Below, one piece after another: positions 17,935-35,023 of a stretch of DNA of 64,000 bases. The first letter of the stretch is position 1. Every line of letters begins with the position of its first letter. Below the pieces are notes generated by a model. That model ran no database searches. It was not told where the DNA came from and saw only the letters and a list, made by a program, of their open reading frames with translations. The stretch comes from a virus. The translations under genes and the position numbers were made by a program. The DNA is taken from positions 22,763 through 86,762 of the IMG/VR virus record IMGVR_UViG_3300017917_003637; one strand, written 5' to 3'.

Positions 17935-19152
17935 ATGGAAAGAAATTTTAGAATCAACCCAGTTGGTCTTAAAGGAAATGAAATCAACGAGCGTATGAAA
18001 CAACTTATGGGTGTAACACCTATAAACGAAGGTTTATCTCGTTCAACAGTTGAATTAACCAAAATTGGTCCAGATGGTAAAGCATATGGTATTGTAAGAG
18101 AAAATCATGAATATTACATAAAAGTATCTGACAAGACCGAAAACCTTACTGTTGAGGACTTTAAATACATTGGTGGTCTTCAAAATAAAAAATCAGAAGC
18201 GTATCCATCATATGCTAAAGCTACTAAACACTTAAACTTAAAATTTAACTCTATTTGCGAATCATTTGATATTGTGAATACATTCAACGTATTTGTTGAT
18301 GATAACTTGTTATCTGAAGGTGCTGCTAAAGAAGCTACTAAACACATTACAGATGCTAAGGGTAAAGAGTTAGGTGGTAAAGTAAAAGAAGAAGGTGGTG
18401 ATAACTTGGCTGAGAAAAAAGTCATGGATGAATTAGAAGAAGTTACTCTTACTGAAGATGAGTTAGCTATTGACGCTATGCTTAACGAAAGTGATGAAGA
18501 AGACTTGGATGAGTCAGCTCAAGGTGAAGTTGGTGCATATGCTCATGAAAAATCTAAGAAAAAAGACAAAGAAAAAGATGAAGATGAAAAAGACTTAGAC
18601 GAAGCTGAATCTAAAAACAACCCATGGGCTATCTGTACCGCTAGTGTTGGTCGTGAAGACAAAGAAAAATACGAAGCGTGTGTTAGAGACGTTAAAAAAC
18701 AAAAAGGTGTTAAAGAAGAATTAAAAGGTGGTCAACACAAAATCGATGCTAATAAAAATGGTAAGATTGATGGTGAGGATTTTAAACTTCTTAAAAAAGG
18801 TAAAACCAATGAAAACATTGATGACCAGATGTCTACTGACGAATTAATGGATAAACTAGATAATATGTCAGCTAAAGAATTGTTACAATTGTTAGGTGAT
18901 GCTGGTAGAGACTTGAAAAATGTAATTGCTAGAAAATTATCTACAGGTATGGATAAAGCTAGAGATTTTTTTGATAAGCAATATCCAGATGTTAACGAAG
19001 AAATGACTGACAAACAAAAGAAATTTGCTGCTTTGGCCGAACCTAAAGATAAAATCACATATGCTGATAAAATTGCTGGTGCTACCAAAGATGAAGCTAT
19101 GACACTTGAAGAAATTCAAGAGGCGATTGCTGATTTAAAAAAAAAACTTTAA
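17935..19152 (+). CDS. Modular putative head-internal protein, part 1 (ends at a slippery site)
   Basis: 405-aa ORF of short modules separated by xxE sites; ends GAT TTA AAA AAA AAA CTT TAA. Confidence 0.75.
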   Translation: MERNFRINPVGLKGNEINERMKQLMGVTPINEGLSRSTVELTKIGPDGKAYGIVRENHEYYIKVSDKTENLTVEDFKYIGGLQNKKSEAYPSYAKATKHLNLKFNSICESFDIVNTFNVFVDDNLLSEGAAKEATKHITDAKGKELGGKVKEEGGDNLAEKKVMDELEEVTLTEDELAIDAMLNESDEEDLDESAQGEVGAYAHEKSKKKDKEKDEDEKDLDEAESKNNPWAICTASVGREDKEKYEACVRDVKKQKGVKEELKGGQHKIDANKNGKIDGEDFKLLKKGKTNENIDDQMSTDELMDKLDNMSAKELLQLLGDAGRDLKNVIARKLSTGMDKARDFFDKQYPDVNEEMTDKQKKFAALAEPKDKITYADKIAGATKDEAMTLEEIQEAIADLKKKL

Positions 19153-20630
19153 GCGAAGCTAAAAAATATAAATTGAAGTTGGATAAACCAGCGTCAGAGG
19201 CTCCTATTGCCCCTGCCCCTGCTCCAGCTGAACCTACAACCGAACCAGCTGATGAAGCTGGTTTTGGTGATTTTGGGGGTGAGGAAATGCCAGCAGAACA
19301 ACCAACTGGGGATGAAGCACCAGCAAACGATATGCCTGATTTTGAAAAAGAACCATTTGACGCTGGAGTTGATGCTGATGAGGAAACTGACCCTAAAAAA
19401 TTTATTGAGCAATTAAGTGGTAAATTAGGTCAGTCATTAAGACAGTATACCAAAGACCAAGGTCAACCAGATTTTGAATTGGAAAAATTCGCAATTAATT
19501 CAGTTATTTCAGCAACAAACACTGCTGATATGGATGAAGAAGATAGAAATGATATTATCAAAAAAATAGAAAAATCTGGTGAAGATGAAACACAAGACTT
19601 TGGAGATGATAATCAAGCTGGCGCCGACGCTGGAGATGATTCTTTCGGTGGACCCGATAACGGGGCTGGTAATGCTGATGAGTTTGATTTTTCATCTGAT
19701 GAAGAACCAGTTCAAGAAGGTAAATTTATGCTTGACAAAACAAAAAAACTAAGCATCTTTGCACCTGAGGGCAGTGAAGAAGCAAAATTTAAACACATAA
19801 ATGAAATGAAAGAAGGTTCAAACAATTACATGTTCTGGCAAAATTTAAAAACTATTGTACATGCCGCATCTGAATTATTAAAAATGGATTGTGACCAAGT
19901 TGATACATTGTTATCAGATGGTCATGGTTGGGCTCTTGACCACATGGCTACATCCGCTGATGACGTTGAAGAAGTGTATCACTTTGTTGAAGGTCGTTTA
20001 AACGATACCCATGAGGATTCTGGTGAAGAAATGGATTATTCAAAATGGGCTCAACCAATGAAATTAAACCAACCAGTTACTGTGTCTAAAGACTTAGCTT
20101 ATCACTTAACTAACGAAATCGCGTTGGGCGAATCTATTTTCAGATATGGTTCTGAAAAATTCCAAAACCTTGTTAAAGAAGTAAGACAATTAAAAGCTAA
20201 GGGTCTTATTGATTTGAATGAAAATGACCAATTTATCGTTGAAGATTATGACAACGGTTTTGTTGTGATTGGTGAAAACAAAGTTAAATTAAATACAATC
20301 TTTGAAGAATTTGATGCTGAGACAATCAACGAAGCTGAGTATCAAGGTAAAAAAGTACAGTTAGGTAAGCCTAAACGTGGTGGTTCTAAAAAATTCTACG
20401 TTTATGTGAGAAATCCTAAGACTGGTAAAGTTAAAAAAGTATCATTTGGAGCTCAAGGTGGTGGTGGTAACTTAGCGGTTAAATTAAAAGACCCTAAGGC
20501 TAGAAAAGCATTTGCTGACAGACACAACTGTAAGGCTAAAAACGATAAAACAAAAGCTGGGTATTGGGCATGTAGATTGCCTAGATATGCTAAATTATTA
20601 GGTTTATCAGGTGGTGGTACTTGGTGGTAA
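19134..20630 (+). CDS. Modular putative head-internal protein, part 2 (-1 frame continuation)
   Basis: Frame opens at 19134 after TGA 19131-19133; only a TTG start at 19173; basic C-terminal module AEYQGKKVQLGKP...RHNC...AGYWACR. Confidence 0.75.
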   Translation, partial: FKKKTLSEAKKYKLKLDKPASEAPIAPAPAPAEPTTEPADEAGFGDFGGEEMPAEQPTGDEAPANDMPDFEKEPFDAGVDADEETDPKKFIEQLSGKLGQSLRQYTKDQGQPDFELEKFAINSVISATNTADMDEEDRNDIIKKIEKSGEDETQDFGDDNQAGADAGDDSFGGPDNGAGNADEFDFSSDEEPVQEGKFMLDKTKKLSIFAPEGSEEAKFKHINEMKEGSNNYMFWQNLKTIVHAASELLKMDCDQVDTLLSDGHGWALDHMATSADDVEEVYHFVEGRLNDTHEDSGEEMDYSKWAQPMKLNQPVTVSKDLAYHLTNEIALGESIFRYGSEKFQNLVKEVRQLKAKGLIDLNENDQFIVEDYDNGFVVIGENKVKLNTIFEEFDAETINEAEYQGKKVQLGKPKRGGSKKFYVYVRNPKTGKVKKVSFGAQGGGGNLAVKLKDPKARKAFADRHNCKAKNDKTKAGYWACRLPRYAKLLGLSGGGTWW

Positions 20631-20642
20631 AATTTATAAACC

Positions 20643-21095
20643 ATGGGAAGAATAGAAAAAAATAAAAAGTTATTAATTGAGCGTAAAAACCGTCAAGTTC
20701 TAGGCAAACCAGAAATGGATTGTCCAGAACCAACTCAAAATTTAGAATTAAATACTGAAAACAGAGACGCCGCTATCAAAGAAGACCATATTCAATATGG
20801 TCCTTTGAATGTTGACGAACCAGCTGATTTCTGGGAAAAGATTGCTGACCATTGGAATACCAGTGTTGAAGCGGCTCAGAAGTCTAAATGTGGTAATTGC
20901 GTGGCATTTGATATTTCACCTAGAATGGACGATTGTATGCCAGGTCCTATTTCTGACGATGATGGTAGATTAGGATATTGTTGGATGCACCATTTTAAAT
21001 GTCACTCAGCAAGAACATGTAGAACATGGGCTAAGGGTGGTCCGATAGAAGAAGACTCAGTGTCATATAAATGGCAAGAAAAAAACAAAAAGTAA
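20643..21095 (+). CDS. Cys-rich metal-binding protein
   Basis: CGNCVAF...GYCWMHHFKCHSARTCRTW. Confidence 0.7.
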   Translation: MGRIEKNKKLLIERKNRQVLGKPEMDCPEPTQNLELNTENRDAAIKEDHIQYGPLNVDEPADFWEKIADHWNTSVEAAQKSKCGNCVAFDISPRMDDCMPGPISDDDGRLGYCWMHHFKCHSARTCRTWAKGGPIEEDSVSYKWQEKNKK

Positions 21096-21096
21096 T

Positions 21097-22179
21097 ATGA
21101 AACCATATAGCGAAATAGAAAAAGGGAACATAGTAAGACGCACATTTTCAGACAACGTACCTGAGAGTGAGTTGGTGTGGCATAGAGACCATGAGGATAG
21201 GGTTGTTTTACCATTAAACGAGAATGATTGGATGGTTCAATTTGATAATGAATTACCACGAAAACTTGTTGTTGGTGAAGAATACTTTATACCTAAAAAT
21301 ACTTTTCATAGAGTTATAAAGGGGTCTGGTGAATTGCAAGTTGAAATCATAAAAACTGATTTTAACGAAGTTATTGAAGAAGGTGATAAGAAAGCTAAAA
21401 GAGACGCTTGTTATCACAAGGTAAGAGCTAGATATGATGTATGGCCATCTGCTTATGCTTCTGGTGCTCTTGTTAAGTGTCGTAAGGTTGGTGCTTCTAA
21501 CTGGGGTAACAAATCAAACGAGACTGAAGACATAGGTAAAAGCGGTAAAAAACAGTTTAAAAAAGACTTACAAAAAGACCCAGATTACTTAAAATATAAA
21601 GACAGCGATAATGAGTTTGGTGTACCAAATGTAACAACAGATGACCCATTTATCAAAAAAGGAAGATACACTAGAGTTGGTAAAGAAGACTTAGATGAAT
21701 TAACAGTTTATGAAGCTAAAAAAACTGATTTCTCAAAAGAAAAATCGCAAGGTCTTCATGGATGGTTTTCTAGAAAAGGTGGTGAAGGTTCTAGCGGTTG
21801 GGTTGATTGCAACACATGTAGAAAAGACCCAGATACTGGTAGAAAGAAATGTAAACCATGTGGAAGACAAGAGGGTGAGAAAAGAAAATACCCAGCATGT
21901 CGTCCAACACCGTCTGCATGCGGTACAAGAGGCAAGGGTAAAAAATGGGGTAAAAAAAGTACCTCAGAGGGCTTGAATATCTCAGAAAATTTTAGTATAT
22001 TTGATAAAGACTATTTAAAAATGAGATTACAAGAAACATTTAACCACGAAGAACCGTTGGTATTACCAGCTGAACCTAAAACTAAACCTAAGGAATCTCC
22101 AATGGTTCAACCATCAAGACGCAATAAGCCTTTCTTACCTGAAAGAGAAACGCAACCAGACCCAAAAGCTGAAAACTAA
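21097..22179 (+). CDS. Multi-module protein: N-terminal cupin-like domain plus basic Cys-containing modules
   Basis: WHRD.EDR...FIPKNTFHRVIKG; DACYHKV..RYDVWPSAYASGALVKCR; GWVDCNTC...KPCGR...YPACRP. Confidence 0.7.
   Translation: MKPYSEIEKGNIVRRTFSDNVPESELVWHRDHEDRVVLPLNENDWMVQFDNELPRKLVVGEEYFIPKNTFHRVIKGSGELQVEIIKTDFNEVIEEGDKKAKRDACYHKVRARYDVWPSAYASGALVKCRKVGASNWGNKSNETEDIGKSGKKQFKKDLQKDPDYLKYKDSDNEFGVPNVTTDDPFIKKGRYTRVGKEDLDELTVYEAKKTDFSKEKSQGLHGWFSRKGGEGSSGWVDCNTCRKDPDTGRKKCKPCGRQEGEKRKYPACRPTPSACGTRGKGKKWGKKSTSEGLNISENFSIFDKDYLKMRLQETFNHEEPLVLPAEPKTKPKESPMVQPSRRNKPFLPERETQPDPKAEN
21973..22003 (+). promoter_or_regulatory. Host-type promoter embedded in coding sequence
   Basis: TTG 21973-21975, N20, TATATTTG 21996-22003; in-frame ATG at 22021. 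Confidence 0.5.
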
Positions 22180-22592
22180 TGGATAAATTGTATTTGATAT
22201 ATGTGAATTATGTTGGAAAGGATTATAAGGGTGATTACCTTTATGAGTTTATTTTTTCTGATACAACAGAAGATATAGACGGCGATGAATGGGATACGTA
22301 TCCAGCGTCTGGTAGACCTCAACCACCACATGAATCATTTATAAAAAAAGTTGGTAGACTTGAGTCTGAGTTAATGTTAGATGTGATTCAAAATAGTGAT
22401 ACATTTGCTGTTTGGGATGCAATAGACGGGGTAATCGCTTTGGCTTGGGAAAACATTGACGATTATGAAACATACCCTGAAAAAAGAATTTGTTTTAAAT
22501 TTGGTGAACCTATTTCTAGTGTTGAAGATAAGTTATACGAAAAAGACCTAATATTGAATTATAATATAAGCAAACATGAGCACAAAAAATAA
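22179..22592 (+). CDS. Hypothetical protein
   Basis: 137-aa TAATG-coupled ORF. Confidence 0.7.
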   Translation: MDKLYLIYVNYVGKDYKGDYLYEFIFSDTTEDIDGDEWDTYPASGRPQPPHESFIKKVGRLESELMLDVIQNSDTFAVWDAIDGVIALAWENIDDYETYPEKRICFKFGEPISSVEDKLYEKDLILNYNISKHEHKK

Positions 22593-23547
22593 AATTAACG
22601 AAGAAGAAAAATTTAAAATCCATGTTGATAAAAAAACGTTGGGTGATGCTAACAAAACAAAAGAGTTAGCTATGCTTAAAAAGAAAAATCCAAACATAGA
22701 ATTTGATTTAGAACCACCTACTTCACAAAGTAGTGTTATTAGTTCTAGTTCTATGATGGAACAACCAGAAGCTATCATTCAACCACAAGACAAAGCCACT
22801 ATTAAATATCTTTCAAATGTTAAACACCCTGAGACTGGTGAAATAGCACAACCATTTAACATTTCAGATAAAAAATATCAGATGGTAAGAGGAATGACAC
22901 CTGATAAAAATGTTGTGTTGGGTGTTTATTGTTTTGATGAATTAAACGAAGATGGTAGCAATAAAATCTACCATGTTGATGAATTTGAAAATAAAGTAGC
23001 AAAACCAATGCTTGAAAGAGAAAAGTTAACAACTGAAAGTGAAAACAAATCTTCACAACCTGAGAGTCTTAATCTTGGTGAATACAAACACTTCATTGTA
23101 AATGAAAAAAGTGGTAAGTTTAAGAAATTTAAAACTATCCCAGAATTAGCCGCTACTACTATGCTTGAAGATGAGAGATATATGGGGTTACAAGAATTTA
23201 AAAAATTCTTTGAAACTAGAGTATTTGGTGCGCCTAAGAAAAAAGAATTGACTGAAGTTGGTATGACTGGTCAAGAAGGTGAAGAAGAAATGACAATTAA
23301 AGCTCAGAAACTTATGGGCCTTATTCAAAAAAGAATCCCATCAAATATTATCGATACCATTAAAACAAACAAAATTGCTCAAAGAGAAGTAATTGCTGCA
23401 TTTGCCGAGTTAATCGGTGTACCTAGAAATGGTCTTACTGGTCTTGTTCAAGGTATTAAAGATTTAGCTAAGACTGGTACTCAACCTCAACAACAAGTTG
23501 CTGAAAGTAGAGTGGTAAAAACAATAAAGAAAAAAGACATAAAATAA
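22576..23547 (+). CDS. Hypothetical protein, probable virion protein
   Basis: 323-aa ORF with INE/LTE/VAE sites, in the head operon. Confidence 0.7.
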   Translation: MSTKNKINEEEKFKIHVDKKTLGDANKTKELAMLKKKNPNIEFDLEPPTSQSSVISSSSMMEQPEAIIQPQDKATIKYLSNVKHPETGEIAQPFNISDKKYQMVRGMTPDKNVVLGVYCFDELNEDGSNKIYHVDEFENKVAKPMLEREKLTTESENKSSQPESLNLGEYKHFIVNEKSGKFKKFKTIPELAATTMLEDERYMGLQEFKKFFETRVFGAPKKKELTEVGMTGQEGEEEMTIKAQKLMGLIQKRIPSNIIDTIKTNKIAQREVIAAFAELIGVPRNGLTGLVQGIKDLAKTGTQPQQQVAESRVVKTIKKKDIK

Positions 23548-23550
23548 TTT

Positions 23551-24819
23551 ATGAGTAATTATAGAAAAATAGCTGAACAAGCATTATTAAAATCACTTAA
23601 CAGAAACAAACCCACATTAAATGAGGGTGTTGTTTATGGTGATAATATATCTGAAAGAATGCATCCTCAGTTAGAAAAAGAATTAGCTGAAAGAAAACAC
23701 TCGTTGGGGAAACACCCAGCAATACCTGAGGGTGATGAAAATAACTTTGAACAAAAGATAATGGGTAAACGCTTTAGTGAAGTTGTTAACCGTTATAAAC
23801 GCGCATTTGATGTTGACGAAATTAATAATGAGCAATTATTGAGTCAAATGATGCCTATGGTACATGAAACCATGGCCTTAGAAACAAAACACAAAAAAGC
23901 CTTGGAAGAATTGGCTGAAAGAATGATTAGAGAAGAATATGACATGGCTGAAGATGTTGTTGAAATTAAAGCAAAATTATCACCAACCGTTGTATTAGAG
24001 GGCACCAAAAAACACCCAACACCTAAAGCCAACGATTATCAATTTGAAAGCCATGAAGATATGGTAAACGCTAAAGAAGAGGTTTACAAAAGACGTTTTT
24101 TAAACGCAATGATTCAAGGTGCTGCAAAGAAAACAAACCACATGTTCCACATGGTAGACGAAGAGTTAACCAATATGGACCCTCGTTTGTTGAATAGGTA
24201 TTCTAAAGTTATGTCAGCGGCTGATTATATGTACTACGTAATCCCTAAAATGGATAATGGTACCAGTGGCGGTGTGGTTAAAGTTACATTCCCAACACCT
24301 GAAAACCCTAAGGCTGTTATTGAAGCTGAAGCCATGGTATTTCCAGTTCTTATTCATGAATTGGTAAAAGGGGTAATGGAATTATTGTCAGCTCACGGTT
24401 TGCCTAAAGATAAAAAATTAGGTGATTATGTTGTTGATAAAGCGGATTTCTTAGCCGCAGAACCATGGGATATGAGAATAGGTCCAGCTTTGTGGGATAG
24501 GTTTACTGATTGTATTGATGGTGATGATTTCCATTTAAAACATCATTTGTATATGGAGTTAGCTTCAATGCCAGTAAAAGAATTCAACGATAACATGAGA
24601 GAAATTTTAGCTGGTACCAACAAGGGTAAAAAAATTGTAAAAGAAATACTAGATAACGTTAAAAATGAACTACAAGAAGAAGAATTTGAAAGTGCCATTA
24701 ATGAGTTAAACACAACTGAAGAAAAAAATTATTTTACGTTAGATGAAATAATGTTTGGTAATGATTTTGAGATTGATGAAGATGACGATGACACTTATGA
24801 TATTGACGATTTACTATAA
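23551..24819 (+). CDS. Hypothetical protein upstream of terminase
   Basis: 422-aa ORF, LIHELVKGVME (HExxK), acidic tail. Confidence 0.75.
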   Translation: MSNYRKIAEQALLKSLNRNKPTLNEGVVYGDNISERMHPQLEKELAERKHSLGKHPAIPEGDENNFEQKIMGKRFSEVVNRYKRAFDVDEINNEQLLSQMMPMVHETMALETKHKKALEELAERMIREEYDMAEDVVEIKAKLSPTVVLEGTKKHPTPKANDYQFESHEDMVNAKEEVYKRRFLNAMIQGAAKKTNHMFHMVDEELTNMDPRLLNRYSKVMSAADYMYYVIPKMDNGTSGGVVKVTFPTPENPKAVIEAEAMVFPVLIHELVKGVMELLSAHGLPKDKKLGDYVVDKADFLAAEPWDMRIGPALWDRFTDCIDGDDFHLKHHLYMELASMPVKEFNDNMREILAGTNKGKKIVKEILDNVKNELQEEEFESAINELNTTEEKNYFTLDEIMFGNDFEIDEDDDDTYDIDDLL

Positions 24820-24904: not shown

Positions 24905-26671
24905 ATGCTAACAGCACAAGAAATATTTAAAGAATATTCTAAGTGTCTCATGAATCCAATTTATGCGATTGAGACATACTTGGAAACGTTCGATAAGACG
25001 CAAGAAGGGTTTGTTCCCTTTAAACTATTTCCTAGACAAAAGGAGATTATAAACGCATACGAAAAGAACAGATTTAACTTGGTGACAAAACCAAGACAAG
25101 CTGGGGTTTCTACCACAACAGCAGCATATATGGCGATAAAAGTTGGATGGGCCGACGAGGATAACCCAGAAGCGGTTCTTATCATCGCCAACAAACAAGA
25201 ATTGGCCTTCGAGTTCTTGGCCAAGATTAAAGACTTTTTATCTCAGTTACCTAGATGGGTTTGGGGTCATGAATATTATGGTAACCCTAAAAACGAGGGT
25301 AAATCAATTTTCCTTACCGATTCTAAAAAAGAAATTAAGTTACCTAACGGTAGTCGTGTTAAAGCAGTTGCAACATCTAAGGATGCTTTGCGTGGTTTTA
25401 CACCAACCTTCCTTATCATGGATGAGGCTGCGTATATTGACAACGGAGCTGAGGTATTTGGTGCCGCTCTTACCGCATTAGGTACTGGGGGTAGAGCTAC
25501 ACTTATTTCTACACCTAACGGTATGGACCCATTATACTACAAAACATATGACCAAGCAAGAACCAAAAAGAACAATTTCAACATTATTGAAATGAAATGG
25601 TATGAAGACTTGCGTTACAACAAAGACTTGAGATGGGTTAAGGGTGATGATATTGAAAAAGAAATATATTTTACTTTTGAATCCTATCAAAGAAGAATTG
25701 CAGATGGTTGGAAACCCACATCAAGCTGGTACGAAGAGATGTGTATGGGTATGAACAACGATGCCCGTATGATTGCCCAAGAGCTTGATGTATCGTTTAT
25801 TGGTTCTGGGGGTAATGTGATTAGTGAAGAATTTATCGAATACCACGAGAAAAACAATGTGTTGGAACCTAAGATAACCATGGGTCTTGAAAATGAGATA
25901 TGGATATGGGAAGAACCACAGGAAGGACACCAATACATTATGGGTGTTGACGTTTCTAGAGGTGATGGTGAGGATAGTTCTACGATTGTAATAATTGATT
26001 TTACGACCATGGAACAAGTAATGGAGTATCAAGGTAAGATTCAACCAGACTTATTGGCTCAAATCGTTGAGGAATACGGTGAATTGTATGAGGCCTATAC
26101 TGTTGTCGATGTTACTGGTGGTATGGGTGTGTCAACAGTTCTTAAATTACTTGAATTTAATTATAAGAGATTGCACTACGATGACGCAACTGGTAAAATT
26201 TTATCGGCTAGACAAAGAGAATTAAATAGCCATTTGAAGAAGGATAAAATCCCAGGATTTCACGCAACAAATGTTCGTGTACCGATGATTTCAAATTTGG
26301 AATATAAAATTAGAACCAATGCTATCAAGATACGTTCTAGTCGCTTGACTTCAGAAATGAAAACATTTATTTATAAGAATGGTAGACCTGACCACATGGA
26401 AGGTTATCATGATGACTTACTTATGTCATTGGCAATGTGTCTTTGGGTTATGGAACACTCATTTAAAAAACTTGAAAGACTAGAGAAACAAAATAAAGCG
26501 ATATTAAATAGTTGGCTTAGTGGTGCGAATGTTTCGTCAACACCAACGATTAGAGATAAAGACCCAAATACTGGGAATATTACACAGAAAATAAACCCCA
26601 CACATACTGCATATAAAAATGTTCAAGACCCTAGAGGTCAGTATTCGTGGTTATTTGCTAAACCAAGATAA
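24905..26671 (+). CDS. terL: Terminase large subunit (T4 gp17-like)
   Basis: KPRQAGVST, Walker B LIMDEAA, ISTPNG, QELDVSF, nuclease GVDVSRGDGEDSS and HDDLLMS; ATATTTAT at 24879-24886. Confidence 0.93.
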   Translation: MLTAQEIFKEYSKCLMNPIYAIETYLETFDKTQEGFVPFKLFPRQKEIINAYEKNRFNLVTKPRQAGVSTTTAAYMAIKVGWADEDNPEAVLIIANKQELAFEFLAKIKDFLSQLPRWVWGHEYYGNPKNEGKSIFLTDSKKEIKLPNGSRVKAVATSKDALRGFTPTFLIMDEAAYIDNGAEVFGAALTALGTGGRATLISTPNGMDPLYYKTYDQARTKKNNFNIIEMKWYEDLRYNKDLRWVKGDDIEKEIYFTFESYQRRIADGWKPTSSWYEEMCMGMNNDARMIAQELDVSFIGSGGNVISEEFIEYHEKNNVLEPKITMGLENEIWIWEEPQEGHQYIMGVDVSRGDGEDSSTIVIIDFTTMEQVMEYQGKIQPDLLAQIVEEYGELYEAYTVVDVTGGMGVSTVLKLLEFNYKRLHYDDATGKILSARQRELNSHLKKDKIPGFHATNVRVPMISNLEYKIRTNAIKIRSSRLTSEMKTFIYKNGRPDHMEGYHDDLLMSLAMCLWVMEHSFKKLERLEKQNKAILNSWLSGANVSSTPTIRDKDPNTGNITQKINPTHTAYKNVQDPRGQYSWLFAKPR

Positions 26672-26984: not shown

Positions 26985-29045
26985 ATGGCAAAAGAAAATT
27001 TAACAATATTTCAAAGGTTAAACAGAGTTGTTAACCCTAATTACAATCCACCACAAAAACAAACCACACAACGTTTTAATTTGGGTGGTGGTGAGTTGCT
27101 TAAGACTACAAGCAAAGCTGAATATGAATCGGCTAAATTACAAGCACAACAAAATAAATACTTACAAAGCACATGGAAACGAGTTGAAAACGGTTTGTTT
27201 CAACAATCAATAAATTATGAAACAACTCGTGTTGGTTCTTATTCTGATTTTGAAGCCATGGAGTTTTACCCGACAATTGCTGCTGCGTTGGATGTGATGA
27301 TGGAGGAATCTACCACGGTAAACGATAGAGGTAGAGTGCTTAATATTTATTCAGATAGCAAGCGTGTTAAGGGTATTCTTGAGGATTTATTTTTTAACAG
27401 ACTAGATTTACACACTACGTTACCAATGTGGGTTAGAAACACATGTAAATATGGTGATAATTTTGTCTACTTAAATATCAATGATAGACAAGGTATTGTA
27501 TCCGCAAAACAAATGCCTAACTATGAAATGGAGCGTAGAGAAGCTGGGTTATATGATTTGGTTAGTGGTAGAGAATATTCTGATAACCAAGATGAAAATA
27601 AAGACAGAGTAAAATTCTATTGGAGAGGTCGTGATATTGAATTTAACTCATGGCAAATCGCCCATTTCCGTTTGTTAGGCGATGATAGACGTTTACCATA
27701 CGGTACCTCGGTGTTAGAAAAAGCAAGACGTATTTGGAAACAACTTATCTTATCTGAAGACTCTATGCTTGTATATCGTGTAACTAGAGCACCAGAAAGA
27801 CGTGTATATAAAATATATGTTGGTAACATTGATGATGCTGACGTTGAACAATACGTGAACGCGATTGCTGATAGATTTAAGCGTATGCCAATTATTGACC
27901 CTCAAACTGGACAAATTGACTTGAGATATAACCAATTATCAAACGACCAAGATTTCTTTATCCCAGTTAGAGATGAGAGCGCTCCGAATCCAATTGATAC
28001 GTTACCAGGTGCTGCCAATTTGGACCAAATTGCAGATATTCAATACTTACAAGGTAACTTATTTACTGCTTTGCGTGTTCCTAAACCATTCTTAGGTTTT
28101 GAAGAAGCAACTGGTGAAGGGAAAAATCTTGCTTTGCAAGATATACGTTTTTCTAGAACCATAAACCGTATTCAACAATCTATGCTTCAAGAGTTAAACA
28201 AGATAGCAATTATTCATTTGTTTATTCTTGGATTTGAAGAAGATTTAGATAATTTTACGCTTACACTTAATAATCCATCAACACAAGCGGAAATGCTTAA
28301 AGTTGAACACATGCAAACCAAAGTTACTCTTGTTAAAGATTCTGTTACTGATATCGGAAATGGTTTTGGTGTTATGTCTTGGACCAGAGCTCACAGAGAA
28401 ATATTGGGTTGGTCTGACGATGAAATCAAACAAGACTTACTTGAACAACGTATGGAGAAAGCCGCTGCTGCTGAATTACAAAATACAGCCGCAGTTATTA
28501 AACATACTGGTATGTTTGATGCCGTTGATAAAATATACGGTGATTACCAAGCCGCTCTTAAAGGCGCTGAAGGTGGTGAAGCCGCTGGCGGAGAAGCTGG
28601 TGGCGGAGGCGGAGGCTTCGGCGGTGGTGGTCTAGGTGGTGAAGATTTAGACTTTGGAGCTGAGGGTGGTGCTGAAGGTGGTGAAGAAGCTGCTGGTGGT
28701 GAAGAAGCTGCTGGTTTTGGAGGTGAAGCTGGTGCCGCTCCTGAGGCTGGTGCCGCTCCTGAGGCTGGTGCAACACCTGAAGCTGGTGGTGAAACACCAG
28801 AAGGTTTAGCTGAATCACTTAAAAAAACTGAAAAAGTCTTAACAGAAAGAAAAGAATACTTGGCTAAAAAGTTAAATGAAAGGAACCAAAAATATCAAAA
28901 AAGATTTGTTGATGTATTGGTGGAATCTGTTAAGGAAAAAAACGGAAATGAAGATGTTAGTGTTAAAATATATGACAAGAACGTTAAAATTAACGAAGAC
29001 GTTAACAATATGATAAATGACATAAATAAAATGTTGGATGAATAA
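26985..29045 (+). CDS. Portal protein (T4 gp20-like) with Gly/Ala/Glu-rich C-terminal extension
   Basis: EDSMLVYRVTRAPERRVYKIYVGN, DFFIPVR, IDTLPGA.NL..IADIQY, ALRVP. Confidence 0.93.
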   Translation: MAKENLTIFQRLNRVVNPNYNPPQKQTTQRFNLGGGELLKTTSKAEYESAKLQAQQNKYLQSTWKRVENGLFQQSINYETTRVGSYSDFEAMEFYPTIAAALDVMMEESTTVNDRGRVLNIYSDSKRVKGILEDLFFNRLDLHTTLPMWVRNTCKYGDNFVYLNINDRQGIVSAKQMPNYEMERREAGLYDLVSGREYSDNQDENKDRVKFYWRGRDIEFNSWQIAHFRLLGDDRRLPYGTSVLEKARRIWKQLILSEDSMLVYRVTRAPERRVYKIYVGNIDDADVEQYVNAIADRFKRMPIIDPQTGQIDLRYNQLSNDQDFFIPVRDESAPNPIDTLPGAANLDQIADIQYLQGNLFTALRVPKPFLGFEEATGEGKNLALQDIRFSRTINRIQQSMLQELNKIAIIHLFILGFEEDLDNFTLTLNNPSTQAEMLKVEHMQTKVTLVKDSVTDIGNGFGVMSWTRAHREILGWSDDEIKQDLLEQRMEKAAAAELQNTAAVIKHTGMFDAVDKIYGDYQAALKGAEGGEAAGGEAGGGGGGFGGGGLGGEDLDFGAEGGAEGGEEAAGGEEAAGFGGEAGAAPEAGAAPEAGATPEAGGETPEGLAESLKKTEKVLTERKEYLAKKLNERNQKYQKRFVDVLVESVKEKNGNEDVSVKIYDKNVKINEDVNNMINDINKMLDE
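28728..28799 (+). repeat. 18-bp intragenic tandem repeat (AGAAPE)
   Basis: GCTGGTGCCGCTCCTGAG x2 plus two degenerate copies. Confidence 0.8.
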
Positions 29046-29088: not shown

Positions 29089-29874
29089 ATGCAAAATTTT
29101 GGAAAAATAAAAAACGCTTTTAGTGAAATTTTGGCCGAGGGAATAGCTTCAAACGATGTAGCAAAAAAGAACTTGTTCAAAAAATATGTTAAGACACTTA
29201 AAGAAAGCGAAATATTAAAAACACAATTTTTGGTTTACGAAAATATTGAAAACGTGGTAGAAAATGACCAGTTTTCAGCTAACTTGATTGTTAATGAAAA
29301 TTTATCATTATTAAACAAGTTCAAGAAAAAAGACATCTTAAAAGAAAACCAAAAATTAATTGAACTGTCTGATGAAGTTAAAGCTAAATTAGATGAGTCA
29401 TATGAAGAAAGAATATCAAATTTACATGAGTCATTAAGTAGTTTATTGTTTTTAGATAAATCAGCTAAGACTGTAAATGAAATCGCTAAGAATACAAAGA
29501 ATGTTTTGGATTACATCACAACTAATAAAGTTAAAACAGTTGATGAGTCTTACGACGTCCCTAATAGTATGCTTAGCTCAATTCTTGTTGAGAAATACAA
29601 CGAAAGATATTCTGATTTAACAGAATCAGAAAAAGAAGTAATCAAAATTTTAATTGAATCAACGGATGAACAAAAAATTGAGTTGTATTCAAAAATTTCA
29701 AACGAATGTATCGATTTAATTGATTCTAAACTAAATGAATCTGATTTGGAGACAAAAGACAGATTATTAAGAGTTAAGGATAAATTGTTGAGAACAAGAG
29801 TTAAAATTGATGAGGATTTTTCTAAAAACATATCAAAATTAGTTGATTTAAAAAAAACCTTAGATAACGAATAA
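29089..29874 (+). CDS. Helical hypothetical protein, probable prohead core component
   Basis: Lies between portal and protease; ATATTTAT at 29066-29073; many xxE sites. Confidence 0.7.
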   Translation: MQNFGKIKNAFSEILAEGIASNDVAKKNLFKKYVKTLKESEILKTQFLVYENIENVVENDQFSANLIVNENLSLLNKFKKKDILKENQKLIELSDEVKAKLDESYEERISNLHESLSSLLFLDKSAKTVNEIAKNTKNVLDYITTNKVKTVDESYDVPNSMLSSILVEKYNERYSDLTESEKEVIKILIESTDEQKIELYSKISNECIDLIDSKLNESDLETKDRLLRVKDKLLRTRVKIDEDFSKNISKLVDLKKTLDNE

Positions 29875-31025: not shown

Positions 31026-31751
31026 ATGGATATAAATTATAAAGACTTTAGAATACTTAAGAGAGGTGAATCTGGTTGGGGTGGCCTTATTGAGCACGAT
31101 GCTGGGTATATTAGCCCAGATGAACCTAGAAACCAACCATTCATCAACGAAATCAAAAAACTAGACGGTGGCAGCAAATTAGCCATAGTCGAGCCGTTAA
31201 TCGTATATGTAGTACTTCAAAAATACGGAATCCTTAATCGTAACGGTAGGGTATATCCAGAATCAGTATTAAAAAAACAAGTTAATCTTTATCAAGAAGC
31301 AATTCGTGAGCGTAGAGCGGTTGGTGAATTAGACCACCCAGAATCTTCAATTATTGCTGGTGATAGAATTTCACATAATATTATTGAAACTTGGTGGGAA
31401 GGACAAACCCTTATGGGTAAGATGGAAATCCTTATGACTCCAGGTTTTATAAACTATGGTATTGTATCAACTAAGGGTGATGAGGTTGCAAACTTATTGA
31501 GAAACAGAATCAAGATTGGAGTTTCTTCTAGAGGTGTTGGTTCGCTTAAAGAAGGTAAAAACGGAGAACAAATAGTACAAGATGATTTTGAAATTATTTG
31601 TTGGGATGTGGTTACAGCACCTTCAACTCCAGATGCTTGGATTGGCCGTAGCGCTGAAGAAATGAAGCCATATGTTGAAAACACTGAAGTTAAAAAACCA
31701 ATTATCAAAGAAACACTTAAGGATAACTTAGATAAATTTTTAGCTGATTAA
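31026..31751 (+). CDS. Prohead core protease (T4 gp21-like)
   Basis: NRNGRVYP, AVGELDHP, IGVSSRGVGS, DVVTAPSTPDA; ATATTTAT at 30998-31005. Confidence 0.93.
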   Translation: MDINYKDFRILKRGESGWGGLIEHDAGYISPDEPRNQPFINEIKKLDGGSKLAIVEPLIVYVVLQKYGILNRNGRVYPESVLKKQVNLYQEAIRERRAVGELDHPESSIIAGDRISHNIIETWWEGQTLMGKMEILMTPGFINYGIVSTKGDEVANLLRNRIKIGVSSRGVGSLKEGKNGEQIVQDDFEIICWDVVTAPSTPDAWIGRSAEEMKPYVENTEVKKPIIKETLKDNLDKFLAD

Positions 31752-31871: not shown

Positions 31872-33128
31872 ATGGCAGATAAAAAATCAATACTTGAAGA
31901 AGCCCTTTTGGATATCAATCATATTCAAAATGCTCTTAATGCTAATACCAAAGAAATACTTCGTTCGGTAGCGAAAGAAGAAATTAACGGTGTTGTGAAA
32001 GAGTCTCTAGAAGAAGAGATTTACGAAGAAGAAGAAGTAGAGGAAACTATGGATGAAGCTACTGAAGAAGTAGAAGAAACTATGGATGAATCTATGGAAG
32101 AAATTGAAGAAGGTTATATGGAAGAAGAAGGTGACCTTGAAGAAGGCGACCTTGAAGAAGAAAGCATGGATGAAGACATGGATGAACTTGATATGACTGA
32201 CGCATCAGATGATGAAGTTATTGCTATCTACAAAAAAATGAGTGGTGATGATGAAATCGAAATTGTAGGCGATGAATTACGCTTAAACATTTCAGAACCA
32301 GGTGAATACGTTGTTAAACTTAACGGCGCTGACGAAATGGGTGACGAAGACATGGAAGATGAATTAGAATTGGAACCAGCTGACGATATTATGGGTGGTG
32401 ACGATGAAGAAGACATGGACATGGATATTGAAGATACCGATGAAGAAGGTGACGAAGAAGATTTTGACTACGAAATCGAAATGGATGACGAGGAAGACAT
32501 GGGCGACGAAGAAGACGACATGGAAGATGAAGAATCTATGGATGACGAAGAAATGGGTGACGAAGAAGAGGAAGAAGAAATTGAAGAATCTTTGGGATAC
32601 ACAAGAGGTTATGCTGGTAGACAAGGCGCTAGAAAAAATGGTGCTGCTCACTTACCAAAACCTAAATCTGAAAGTGTAAATGAAACAATCGCTGCAAAAA
32701 AATTAGTTTCTGAAACAGCTAAAAAATATAATGCTTTATTAACTGAAGCAACTAAACTTAAAGCTGAGAATAATGAATTCAGAGCAGCTCTTAAAGAGTT
32801 TAGAACAAAATTGGTAGAAACTGTAGTTTTCAATAGCAATTTAACTTACGTAACTAAATTGTTTATGGAACACTCAACAACCAAAGGTGAAAAAGATTCA
32901 ATCCTTAAAAGATTTGATGATGTAACTAGCCTTAAAGAATCAAAAAAACTTTATAAAACTATTGCTAACGAATTGGAGTCTAGAAAACCAATTTCAGAAT
33001 CAGTAGAAAATAAAATCATTAAAGAAGCTACTAGTGGTGTATCAAAACAAATTGTAGAAAGCACCGCTTATGTAGACCCTTCAACAAAGAGAATCATGGA
33101 TTTGATTAACAGAGTTGAAAGAAGATAA
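31872..33128 (+). CDS. Prohead scaffold/core protein (T4 gp22-like position)
   Basis: Very acidic centre and coiled-coil C-terminus, between protease and capsid genes; ATATTTAT at 31804-31811. Confidence 0.8.
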   Translation: MADKKSILEEALLDINHIQNALNANTKEILRSVAKEEINGVVKESLEEEIYEEEEVEETMDEATEEVEETMDESMEEIEEGYMEEEGDLEEGDLEEESMDEDMDELDMTDASDDEVIAIYKKMSGDDEIEIVGDELRLNISEPGEYVVKLNGADEMGDEDMEDELELEPADDIMGGDDEEDMDMDIEDTDEEGDEEDFDYEIEMDDEEDMGDEEDDMEDEESMDDEEMGDEEEEEEIEESLGYTRGYAGRQGARKNGAAHLPKPKSESVNETIAAKKLVSETAKKYNALLTEATKLKAENNEFRAALKEFRTKLVETVVFNSNLTYVTKLFMEHSTTKGEKDSILKRFDDVTSLKESKKLYKTIANELESRKPISESVENKIIKEATSGVSKQIVESTAYVDPSTKRIMDLINRVERR

Positions 33129-33163: not shown

Positions 33164-35023
33164 ATGTCACATTTATTGACTTCAGGACAAGTTGGTAACA
33201 TCGGATTAAACCACATGAAGGCTATCCGTTTGGAAACCCAACAAAAATGGGACTCTTTAGGATTCTTAGATGGTCTTAAAGGTCACGTTAAAGAAAATAT
33301 TGCTCAGTTATATGAAAACCAAGCTTCAAACTTGTTAACTGAGGCAACTAACGCTACATCATCTGGTTCTTTCGAGACTGTAGTATTCCCAATCGTAAGA
33401 AGAGTTTTCTCAAAATTATTAGCTAACGACGTAGTATCTGTACAAGCTATGAACATGCCAATTGGTAAATTGTTCTACTTTGTGCCTCTTACTTCAGAGC
33501 GTGTAAACGCTGCTGGTCAAGGTGGTGACCCATATGCTACAACTGCATCTAGTGATGTTTGGTCTACTAACCCAGTATACTCTGCTCACACTTCAATGGG
33601 TAACGAAGGTATTCCATCATGTGTTAAAGCTGCTGGTAGTACTTGTACTGTAACTCCATTTGCTGCTAAAAACTTGTACGATATATTCTACAACGATGGT
33701 TTATTCGATAACTCAAAAGGTACTCTTACAATTAAGACTGCTAGCCCACTAGGTGTTTACACTTTAGGTACTGACGGTGCTTTCAGTATTGTAACTGGTA
33801 CTGGTACTACTTTACCTACAGCTGCTGACGGTTCTGTTAGAAGCGTAATTGTTGCTCTTTCTGGTTTCTCAGGTGGTGCAGGTTCTAACGGTAGAGAAGT
33901 GTTGACAGGTCCTGATGGAAACAACATGGATACTGAATCATTCTTAGCGTCTCTTCACGTAATCGCTGGTTCTACATTGTTAGACGCAGATGGTAACGCT
34001 GTTGTTGCTATCAACAAAGAAGTTCCATTCCGTCTTGTTACTCAAAGATACGGTGTTGGTATCGTTTCTGGTCCTAACGTTGTAACTGATGGTAACGGTG
34101 TATGTTGGTTAGAGTTAGATTTGACTCACCCAGTTGGTACTTCTGCTACTGCTGGTGCATCTTACCCAGGTACTGCAACTTATGATGGTTATGTAGGTGT
34201 TTCTGCAACAACATTCCCTTCATTCTCAGGTTTCAGTGCTGCATGGGCTGAATACGCAACATTAGAGTTCGAAACAGAAATGGGTGAAGTATCATTCAGA
34301 CTTGATGAAGTTGTTGTTTCTGTAGAAGAAAGAAAATTAAGAGCTACTTGGTCTCCAGAGTTAGCACAAGACGTTAGTGCATTCCACAACATCGATGCTG
34401 AAGCTGAGTTGACAGCTATGTTGTCAGAACAAGTTGCTGCTGAGATTGACCGTGAAATCCTTAGAGATTTACGTAAAGCTGCTGCATGGCAATTGCGTTG
34501 GGACTACAACGGATGGAGAAAAACTTCAACTGCTGCTCAACCATATACTCAAAAAGAGTGGAACCAAACTTTAATTACTAAAGTTAACCAAATTTCTGCT
34601 CAAATCCATAAATCTACACTTAGAGGTGGTGCTAACTTCATCGTTGTATCTTCAGAGATTTCTGCAATCTTCGACGACTTAGAATACTTCCACGTGTCAG
34701 ACGCTAACCCTGAGCAAGACCAATACAACATGGGTATTGAGAGAATCGGTTCATTAGGTGGTAGATATCAAGTATATCGTGACCCATATGCACCAGCATA
34801 CTCAATCATCATCGGTCACAAAGGTAAATCATTATTGGACACTGGTTACATCTACGCTCCGTATGTACCATTACAGTTGACTCCAACAATGTATAACCCA
34901 TTCAACTTTGCTCCAGTGAAAGGTATCATGACTCGTTACGCTAAAAAAGTGGTTAACAACAGATTCTATGGTCACTTGAGAGTTGATGGTGTACAAACCT
35001 TCAACATCAATGAATTAAGATAA
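33164..35023 (+). CDS. Major capsid protein (T4 gp23-like)
   Basis: PIVRRVF..L.A...VSVQAM..P.G, RKLRATWSPELAQD, EIDREI, YAPYVPL, GIMTRY. Confidence 0.96.
   Translation: MSHLLTSGQVGNIGLNHMKAIRLETQQKWDSLGFLDGLKGHVKENIAQLYENQASNLLTEATNATSSGSFETVVFPIVRRVFSKLLANDVVSVQAMNMPIGKLFYFVPLTSERVNAAGQGGDPYATTASSDVWSTNPVYSAHTSMGNEGIPSCVKAAGSTCTVTPFAAKNLYDIFYNDGLFDNSKGTLTIKTASPLGVYTLGTDGAFSIVTGTGTTLPTAADGSVRSVIVALSGFSGGAGSNGREVLTGPDGNNMDTESFLASLHVIAGSTLLDADGNAVVAINKEVPFRLVTQRYGVGIVSGPNVVTDGNGVCWLELDLTHPVGTSATAGASYPGTATYDGYVGVSATTFPSFSGFSAAWAEYATLEFETEMGEVSFRLDEVVVSVEERKLRATWSPELAQDVSAFHNIDAEAELTAMLSEQVAAEIDREILRDLRKAAAWQLRWDYNGWRKTSTAAQPYTQKEWNQTLITKVNQISAQIHKSTLRGGANFIVVSSEISAIFDDLEYFHVSDANPEQDQYNMGIERIGSLGGRYQVYRDPYAPAYSIIIGHKGKSLLDTGYIYAPYVPLQLTPTMYNPFNFAPVKGIMTRYAKKVVNNRFYGHLRVDGVQTFNINELR

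Follow-up and report, generated by a model that had tools for sequence, protein, structure and literature searches.

Chains of small conserved modules upstream of terL in a viral contig, with junctions of prohead-protease type

The prohead protease of phage T4, gp21, cleaves C-terminal to Glu after L/I-X-E (PMC9026906). The T4 internal proteins (IPI, IPII, IPIII, and Alt) and the core proteins gp22, gp67, and gp68 are handled by this protease family, S77, under the same rule, with cuts after L/I-x-Glu that often fall before Ala, Gly, or Ser; gp22, gp67, and gp68 are cut into several pieces. In phiKZ, 201phi2-1, and SPN3US, many head proteins are likewise cut after Glu by a gp21-related protease (PMC9026906; PMC5694885; PMC7411985); the propeptides contain redundant sites, and processing yields proteins that take part in ejection or associate with the DNA. 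A third point of comparison is offered by the polyvalent proteins, multi-module products of late genes that have been proposed to be packaged and processed into units (Iyer et al., 2017; PMC5512222). Here, a stretch of 64,000 nucleotides from a viral contig, that of a marine T4-like phage (IMG/VR record IMGVR_UViG_3300017917_003637, positions 22,763 to 86,762; hereafter the window) is examined, in which three proteins encoded upstream of terL, named A, B, and D, are mosaics of small modules that occur in thousands of marine phage proteins. The modules are preceded by a hydrophobic-x-Glu motif, and the window encodes an S77 protease of its own that probably cuts at these junctions.

Modules and their junctions

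Seven co-oriented genes, A to G, sit upstream of terL. The three that carry the chains, their parts, and the protease are listed below (lengths in amino acids, aa; isoelectric point, pI), with gene boundaries taken from the list of open reading frames (ORFs).

17935-19152, + strand: gene A, 405 aa
A residues 1-32: leader, ending INE32/G; INE/G kept in 16/16 orthologues
A residues 33-128: conserved domain, ending LSE128/G; LSE/G kept in 16/16 orthologues
A residues 129-223: acidic linker, net charge -18
A residues 224-261: NPWAIC two-Cys module, preceded by LDE/A
A, after the NPWAIC module: EF-hand-like loop module, then the C-terminal part
19173-20630, + strand: gene B, 485 aa from a TTG start
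B residues 1-182: acidic low-complexity region, net charge -38, ending VQE182/G
B remainder: a short segment, the NYMFW/alpha domain (212-387), then B5
20334-20627, + strand: module B5, 98 aa, pI 10.5, net charge +21, two Cys; PHROG 7595 (4.3e-12)
21097-22179, + strand: gene D, 360 aa
21097-21381, + strand: module D1 (D residues 1-95), beta-rich, with an ELVWHRD motif, ending VIEE
21382-21540, + strand: module D2, KRDACYHKV..WPSAYASGALVKCRK..NWGN, two Cys and a basic leader; preceded by IEE
21715-21960, + strand: module D4, AKKTDFSKEKSQGLHGWF..CNTC..C..C.., six Cys, basic; preceded by VYE
31026-31751, + strand: prohead protease of T4 gp21 type, Peptidase_S77 (Pfam, 3.6e-26; 92 bits against a cut-off of 27)

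The protease also matches PHROG 207, head maturation protease, at 2.5e-42. An initial annotation of the window, made from its sequence, had described proteins of short modules bounded by xxE tripeptides; this observation is confirmed and extends well beyond the window.

The informative test of a junction is the presence of the motif at the start of a module where the upstream sequences are unrelated. For B5, 50%-identity representatives of 1.84 billion proteins gave 119 internal instances, which reduce to 88 independent upstream contexts. An exact [LIVMF]-x-E occupies P3-P1 in 81 of these 88, against a background of 0.029 per position (binomial 4e-116), so that the enrichment at boundaries anticipated in the initial annotation is found. 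The residue at P1 is Glu in 84/88 contexts and Asp in 0/88, although upstream frequencies of Asp and Glu are 0.09 and 0.10; P2 is free, and P1' is Ala in 81/88. Independent IMG/VR loci carry the motif in 23 of 26 contexts. A further scan of IMG/VR, made with the alignment of B5, yielded nothing but close, fused forms, mostly on short contigs; on inspection by eye almost all of them carry the motif, and they were kept out of the statistics. In the window, B5 is directly preceded by INE (20325-20333), which gives a predicted mature N-terminus of AEYQGKKV, and the originally proposed site INE/AEYQGK (B 385-387) is strongly supported by these contexts.

Other junctions behave in the same way. At the D4 boundary, VYE/AKKTDF (D 204-206), P1 is Glu in 39/41 contexts and P3 is hydrophobic in 32/41 (P = 1e-15). 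The motif at D2 precedes a variable Lys-rich leader, and IEE/GDKKAKRDACY (D 93-95) is kept in 37/38 orthologues and in nearly all of 120 homologues. In A, LDE/AESKNNPWAIC (A 221-223) is kept in 9/11 orthologues with a flanking identity of only 0.29; the motif is found in 6/7 independent contexts and at a tight spacing from NPWAIC (median 5). These three sites were likewise in the initial list and are strongly supported. The remaining members of that list fare less evenly: INE/MKEGSNNYMFW draws moderate support from cross-context views and orthologue conservation, VKE/ELKGG keeps its motif in orthologues, where it could be a part of the module, and VNE/EMTDKQ is unsupported, with just 4/12 orthologues keeping the motif. 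Six sites can be added, namely INE32/G and LSE128/G in A, VQE182/G in B, INE9/E in F, LNE25/G in G, and LAE17/G in a 261-aa head-module protein.

The motif is also distributed unevenly within the chains. B5 contains 13 internal motifs where 44.6 are expected (z = -5.2), while the 100 residues upstream of it contain 458 against 300 expected (z = +11). Motif-poor modules behind motif-rich linkers are the pattern expected of protease-resistant products that would lie behind cleavable linkers. The junction is degenerate in protein and DNA alike (INE, LTE, IKE, LEE, VAE, MNE), and, as compared here from sequence, it equals the published specificity of T4 gp21 (PMC9026906).

Two simpler measures were set aside. 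Counts within the window prove nothing, because [LIVMF]xE is common throughout Glu-rich proteins: it occurs 18 times in A, 15 in B, and 25 in G, is frequent also in the portal and the protease, and is too common in all head-module proteins to serve as evidence. The presence of a motif anywhere in the 30 residues or fewer upstream of a module is a weak test (0.86-1.00 observed against 0.48-0.70 shuffled) and was replaced by the position-specific tests.

The second line of evidence is the contrast between fused and standalone forms. In phages with an S77 protease, B5 is fused behind the motif, as PMME/SEYQGK in Melnitz, ELDE/GEYRGK in immuto, LPLEE/AEFQGK in HTVC008M, and ELTE/AEYQGK in C48C1, and the window has TINE/AEYQGK. 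Where S77 is missing, B5 forms a separate gene whose start coincides exactly with the junction, as M-AKYKGR in HTVC111P, M-AKYQGR in Kolga, M-ATYKGK in Roseobacter phage CRP-901, and M-AIYRGR in a Nitrosopumilaceae spindle-shaped virus; all four begin M-A-x-Y-x-G. CRP-901 also encodes D2 (54 aa) and D4 (91 aa) separately, as tandem ORFs that lack annotation, and its B5 gene is an annotated one of 85 aa. Immediately upstream of terL in CRP-7, D2 forms a gene of 47 aa. S77 was not found in CRP-901, CRP-7, CRP-6, HTVC111P, or Kolga; among the long IMG/VR contigs with fused forms, 13 of 14 have it, the exception being an incomplete contig. Because hydrophobic-x-Glu occurs only at fusions, and so far only together with a gp21-type protease, it is not part of the module fold. 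The B5 homologue of the spindle-shaped virus is ORF8 (L092:1198-1449), of 83 aa, and with it B5 crosses from tailed phages to an archaeal virus of unrelated morphotype.

The modules are both widespread and mobile. B5 homologues form 3507 representative clusters, and B5 is nearly always the C-terminal module of proteins of 92-1409 aa whose upstream parts are quite different. D2 has more than 8000 homologues, carried by proteins 198-630 aa long; of the isolated phages that have it, almost all belong to the Kyanoviridae, with a small number of roseophages besides. Melnitz and immuto encode D1 on its own. Protein C, a separate gene in the window, lies inside polyproteins elsewhere, for example between modules of an 890-aa protein (P0212). 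Three cyanophage proteins, P-SSM2 gp114, a 500-aa protein of S-T4, and S-SCSM1 gp029, combine these modules with others in mosaic fashion. The standalone or shuffled occurrence that the initial annotation had raised is thereby found for B5, D1, D2, and D4 as standalone genes and for C, B5, and D2 in varied chains.

Several side observations concern the modules themselves. In this low-G+C phage, window positions 21392-21530 share about 80% nucleotide identity with Prochlorococcus and Synechococcus myophages over 120-140 bases, confined to D2, which implies recent exchange or very strong constraint. In four D homologues of about 590-630 aa (P0036, P0039, P0043, P0108), D2 is split after WPSAYA by a CVPE... 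sequence, an insertion in the most conserved part of the module that resembles an intein. A B5-terminated protein of 1409 aa (P0222) has two long leucine-rich-repeat-like ITTLPDNL blocks and duplicated segments of about 400 aa, showing that very large, repetitive cargo can precede the B5 junction. In A, the loop DANKNGKIDGED has canonical EF-hand spacing by eye and scores E = 0.0078 with EF-hand_5, its 16.1 bits lying below the Pfam cut-off of 25.9.

Structure prediction places the B5 boundary at the junction. An AlphaFold2 (AF2) model of B5 plus 15 upstream residues has a predicted local distance difference test (pLDDT) score of 78 and a predicted template modelling (pTM) score of 0.70; ahead of the junction the linker is disordered, with scores under 50, and the first strand starts at the Glu-Ala pair. 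In D1, the beta strands score 50-69. Against the Protein Data Bank (PDB), Foldseek with the B5 model gave no significant match (best E 1.1, Cren7, probability 0.18), a wide VIA-align search reached a Z of 2.5 at best, and a PDB sequence search gave no match; the Cren7 match was rejected as a sign of DNA binding, being not significant. Against BFVD, the model matches only uncharacterised phage proteins.

Links to the head and rival readings

We infer that the chains enter the prohead, are cut there, and leave their modules in the virion; to cutting of the junctions by the S77 protease in the head, a probability of roughly 0.65 is assigned. The head precursor polyproteins would be D and A, the latter probably extended by slippage into an A-B fusion; they would be transcribed together with the structural genes, and the S77 protease would cut them in the prohead after [L/I/V/M]-x-Glu at the module junctions. 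This would release small, mostly basic, Cys-containing, Glu-poor proteins (B5, D2, D4, and the NPWAIC module), which would stay in the head with the DNA, while acidic linkers and leaders would be removed. The predicted products have the corresponding composition, with a pI of 10.5 for B5 and 9.1-9.6 for the D2 and D4 pieces, between strongly acidic linkers, and a Glu content of 2.4% in mature B5, 0.2% in D2, and 3.6% in D4. The earlier proposal that the junctions suit the S77 protease of the same genome is upheld by comparative evidence as to fit, and cleavage itself remains inferred. The further suggestion of the initial annotation, that the modules are effectors or bind metal and may be ejected into the host, stays conjectural. 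The modules are taken as more likely to act on the packaged DNA, or as part of the machinery of head or ejection, than in host-specific counter-defence, because they are strongly basic and extremely conserved across unrelated hosts.

B would join the system through A, and the feature in question lies where the two genes meet.

19137-19146, + strand: run of ten A's (A10) at the end of A, a candidate conserved slip site joining A to B in the -1 frame

A stop follows two codons after the run and B has no ATG. The reading frame of B lies at -1 to that of A, stays open across the run, and gives KKK-T-L-S-E/A-K-KYKLK. All 18 of 18 relatives, distant ones included, share an A-rich stretch of KKK codons that a stop follows closely, a -1 frame that stays open and offers B no ATG, and KYKLK (window 19129-19190; relatives L006-L038). 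The run is about 10 A's long in the closer relatives whose DNA was read, and in most of the 18 a hydrophobic-x-Glu lies just downstream of it. The pattern probably reflects conserved programmed slippage, ribosomal or transcriptional, from which both A and a fusion of A to B, about 890 aa long, would result. Having no leader of its own, B would then enter on A as part of this fusion.

Several observations connect such chains indirectly with phage heads. S-SCSM1 gp029, a mosaic of 517 aa encoded two genes upstream of terL, has the junctions VSE/G, MTE/G, FNE/D, IKE/D, IEE/S, and VSE/G; it is annotated as a virion protein, and the paper of that record reports mass spectrometry of particles purified on caesium chloride (CsCl). 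A homologue in S-B68 bears the annotation of a T4-GC structural protein. In Roseobacter phage CRP-6, gp55 (L091:1135-1824) has B5 fused N-terminally to a prohead protease of another type, Peptidase_S78_2 (XkdF-type, 7.2e-18), a domain fusion that ties B5 to head maturation in a different lineage; the B5 fold recurs in a BFVD entry that bears the name XkdF. Leaders like the capsid-targeting sequence (CTS) of T4 occur in B5 polyproteins (MKKFKQYIDE, MKKFSEIIE, MKLxxLLxE), and the motif lies within residues 2-12 in 77 of 140 of them, against 43 expected and a maximum of 58 in 300 controls. In polyproteins of pelagic T4-like phages, namely Melnitz gp18 (L084:4333-6285), HTVC008M (L086:4070-5860), P0212, and P0269, a cytidylyltransferase-like domain stands behind a T4-CTS-like leader; Melnitz gp18 carries CTP_transf_like, and chains of its type continue with DUF5824 and Cys modules. 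A putative cytidylyltransferase (T4-GC190) has been detected in cyanophage virions (PMC3037559). The domain of Melnitz and HTVC008M resembles T4-GC190, a likeness and not an established orthology.

Other readings of the same data have to be considered. The chains might be intact multidomain proteins in which hydrophobic-x-Glu is a structural feature, either an acidic helix end or part of the module fold, and not a cleavage site. This would suit the abundance of the motif throughout these proteins, the many junctions at which an acidic amphipathic helix seems to give way to a basic leader, and the first B5 strand, which starts at the Glu-Ala pair in the AF2 model. However, standalone B5, D2, and D4 genes start at the junction without the motif, P2 is free, P1 is never Asp despite an equal background, the motif fits the specificity of the genome's own protease, and the modules avoid it internally, so this reading is considered unlikely. 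A little lower still stands the possibility that the prohead protease does cut the chains but that the products form a scaffold-like core, which is degraded and leaves the head like T4 gp22. The long acidic low-complexity stretches, such as B 1-182 with its net charge of -38, do resemble scaffold or propeptide, and the over-representation of the motif upstream of B5 parallels the redundant propeptide sites of phiKZ (PMC9026906). The modules, though, are folded, highly conserved, basic, and Glu-poor, one homologue is annotated as present in purified virions, and a separate scaffold-like acidic protein is already encoded at 31872-33128. The most improbable of these readings takes the motif as a scar of recombination shuffling, or as a site read by another host or phage protease outside the head. 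While modules are indeed shuffled, duplicated, and moved between genes exactly at the junctions, a degenerate junction offers no homology for recombination, no other peptidase domain was found in A to G, and the fused forms co-occur with S77.

Cutting of the junctions by the S77 protease in the head thus remains the preferred reading, and a number of points weigh against it. Cleavage, in this phage and in all homologues, is predicted from sequence comparison, and it is database annotation that places homologues in virions. Only about seven records make up the S77-negative set, which is moreover confounded with phylogeny, as T4-like phages are set against other morphotypes. The homologues are only partly independent, which makes the P-values optimistic, although the effect is nonetheless very large. 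The frequency of the motif in Glu-rich proteins leaves window sites away from module junctions uncertain. The AF2 model of whole D is poor (mean pLDDT 42, 29 close orthologues), and the boundaries in D rest on homology. Lastly, A and D have no clear T4-type capsid-targeting leader: that of A is 32 residues long, and D has none.

A more ambitious version of this reading is held tentatively, at somewhat short of even odds. It would make the chains a true polyprotein system of marine T4-like phages, in which a slippage-extended precursor carries shuffled small proteins into the capsid and is cut there, while podoviruses, siphoviruses, and even an archaeal spindle virus deliver the same proteins from separate genes or through an XkdF-type fusion. 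The modules would then form a widespread unnamed class of universal virion-internal proteins acting on packaged DNA or in ejection.

Head module and neighbouring genes

The source contig is viral, 86.8 kilobases long, and has about 32% G+C; the window is a part of it. Its + strand carries a T4-type head module composed of terL, a portal, the S77 protease, a scaffold-like protein, and a gp23-type capsid protein. Besides the protease and genes A, B, and D, the following genes belong to this region:

20643-21095, + strand: gene C, 150 aa, seven Cys, with a CGNCVAFDISP module (ORF list)
22179-22592, + strand: gene E, 137 aa (ORF list)
22576-23547, + strand: gene F, 323 aa (ORF list)
23551-24819, + strand: gene G, 422 aa (ORF list)
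24905-26671, + strand: terL, head module
26985-29045, + strand: portal, head module
29089-29874, + strand: 261-aa head-module protein with N-terminal leader MQNFGKIKNAFSEILAE/G; LAE17/G kept in 21/21 orthologues
31872-33128, + strand: acidic scaffold-like protein, head module
33164-35023, + strand: major capsid protein, gp23 type (Pfam Gp23, 2.3e-71)

The capsid protein has a candidate maturation site, LLTE60/A61 (codon 33341-33343), kept in 6/6 orthologues and strongly supported; the initial annotation had placed LLTE/A at residue 60, and Glu60 and Ala61 are indeed the residues found there. The nearest isolated relatives of the capsid protein, about 38-40% identical, are those of Flavobacterium phage immuto, Microcystis phage Mel-JY01, and an uncultured jumbo phage. 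The 261-aa protein is, from the conservation of its leader, probably another substrate of the protease. At the C-terminus of the portal (28800-29045), a low-complexity tail rich in Gly, Ala, and Glu is followed by LTE/R, a motif kept in 24/25 orthologues with flanks just 38% identical and possibly a further protease site.

The initial annotation had taken the proteins upstream of terL generally as polyproteins. This does not extend to E, F, and G, which do not look like polyproteins, are lineage-specific, and have at most a short N-terminal leader. Short leaders in the window are those of G (MSNYRKIAE), F, and the 261-aa protein. The leader of F ends at INE9/E and that of G at LNE25/G, kept in 20/20 and 30/30 orthologues, respectively. 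The matches of G are confined to two huge uncultured phages; F has no match.

Scans of A to G returned no named family in Pfam, NCBIfam, or PHROGs; PHROGs of unknown function match two stretches, B 385-468 and D 54-152. The Pfam scan gave no peptidase family at E <= 0.1, the Pfam and NCBIfam scans gave no enzymatic domain, and no family of the T4 IPI, IPII, or IPIII type was found with Pfam, PHROG, or NCBIfam.

A promoter-like element, ATATTTAT, lies 20-25 nucleotides 5' of terL, the gene of the 261-aa protein, the protease gene, the gene of the scaffold-like protein, and the A-G block. Its + strand positions are 14920, 17636, 24879, 29066, 30998, 31804, and 35083, and the window holds 22 copies against 12.3 expected. 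Because ATATTTAT precedes the block and is absent between 17636 and 24879, A to G probably share one transcription unit of the same type as that of the structural genes. The element is a candidate late promoter element, in an orientation that is not that of T4 TATAAATA.

Relation to known systems

If the proposal is true, the heads of the ocean's most abundant myophages, which infect cyanobacteria, SAR11, Methylophilales, and Flavobacteria, hold uncharacterised and very conserved small proteins that are hidden in multidomain genes labelled hypothetical. Annotation at the level of genes and standard tryptic proteomics of virions would then misread the modules, and the junction rule would predict the mature products. 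Mosaic genes would also be explained, as any module behind a site would be delivered. The abundance of B5 and D2, their spread over unrelated hosts, and the occurrence in an archaeal virus point to a general virion function.

The literature searched, on cyanophage internal proteins, capsid-targeting sequences, DUF6321, DUF5661, and DUF5872, holds no description of the modules or of such polyproteins. The initial annotation had named the system its best candidate for an undescribed one, which stands as far as this literature goes; the concept, however, is near to that of the T4 internal proteins, of phiKZ-type processing, and of the polyvalent proteins. Three things differ from these: tiny, unrelated, conserved modules in chains, junctions of prohead-protease type, and the encoding of these modules, in other viruses, by genes of their own or as fusions to a protease.

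One likeness is to T4, in which small basic proteins are retained with the DNA, and short N-terminal leaders like those of T4 are seen in many relatives. However, the window proteins have no sequence similarity to the T4 proteins, A and D lack a clear leader of the T4 type, and the chains carry several unrelated conserved modules that are separate genes elsewhere. The pace of evolution also differs, as the T4 internal proteins evolve fast, whereas the modules show extreme conservation between phages that infect many different hosts. In phiKZ and its relatives, mainly propeptides are removed from single proteins, and shuffled chains of small modules have not been described; furthermore, the phiKZ motif is S/A-x-Glu (PMC9026906), while P3 at the B5 junction is L, I, V, M, or F in 81/88 contexts. 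The polyvalent proteins differ in their large enzymatic counter-defence domains and in a proposed embedded zincin-like peptidase (PMC5512222), whereas the window chains gave no peptidase domain, are made of tiny modules, and have junctions that suit the prohead protease. The polyproteins of RNA viruses and retroviruses share the use of a viral protease with short consensus sites, as well as a frameshift that extends the chain, as in Gag-Pol. This likeness is one of logic only, since the present virus is a DNA phage and the products would be accessory head contents instead of replication or capsid machinery.

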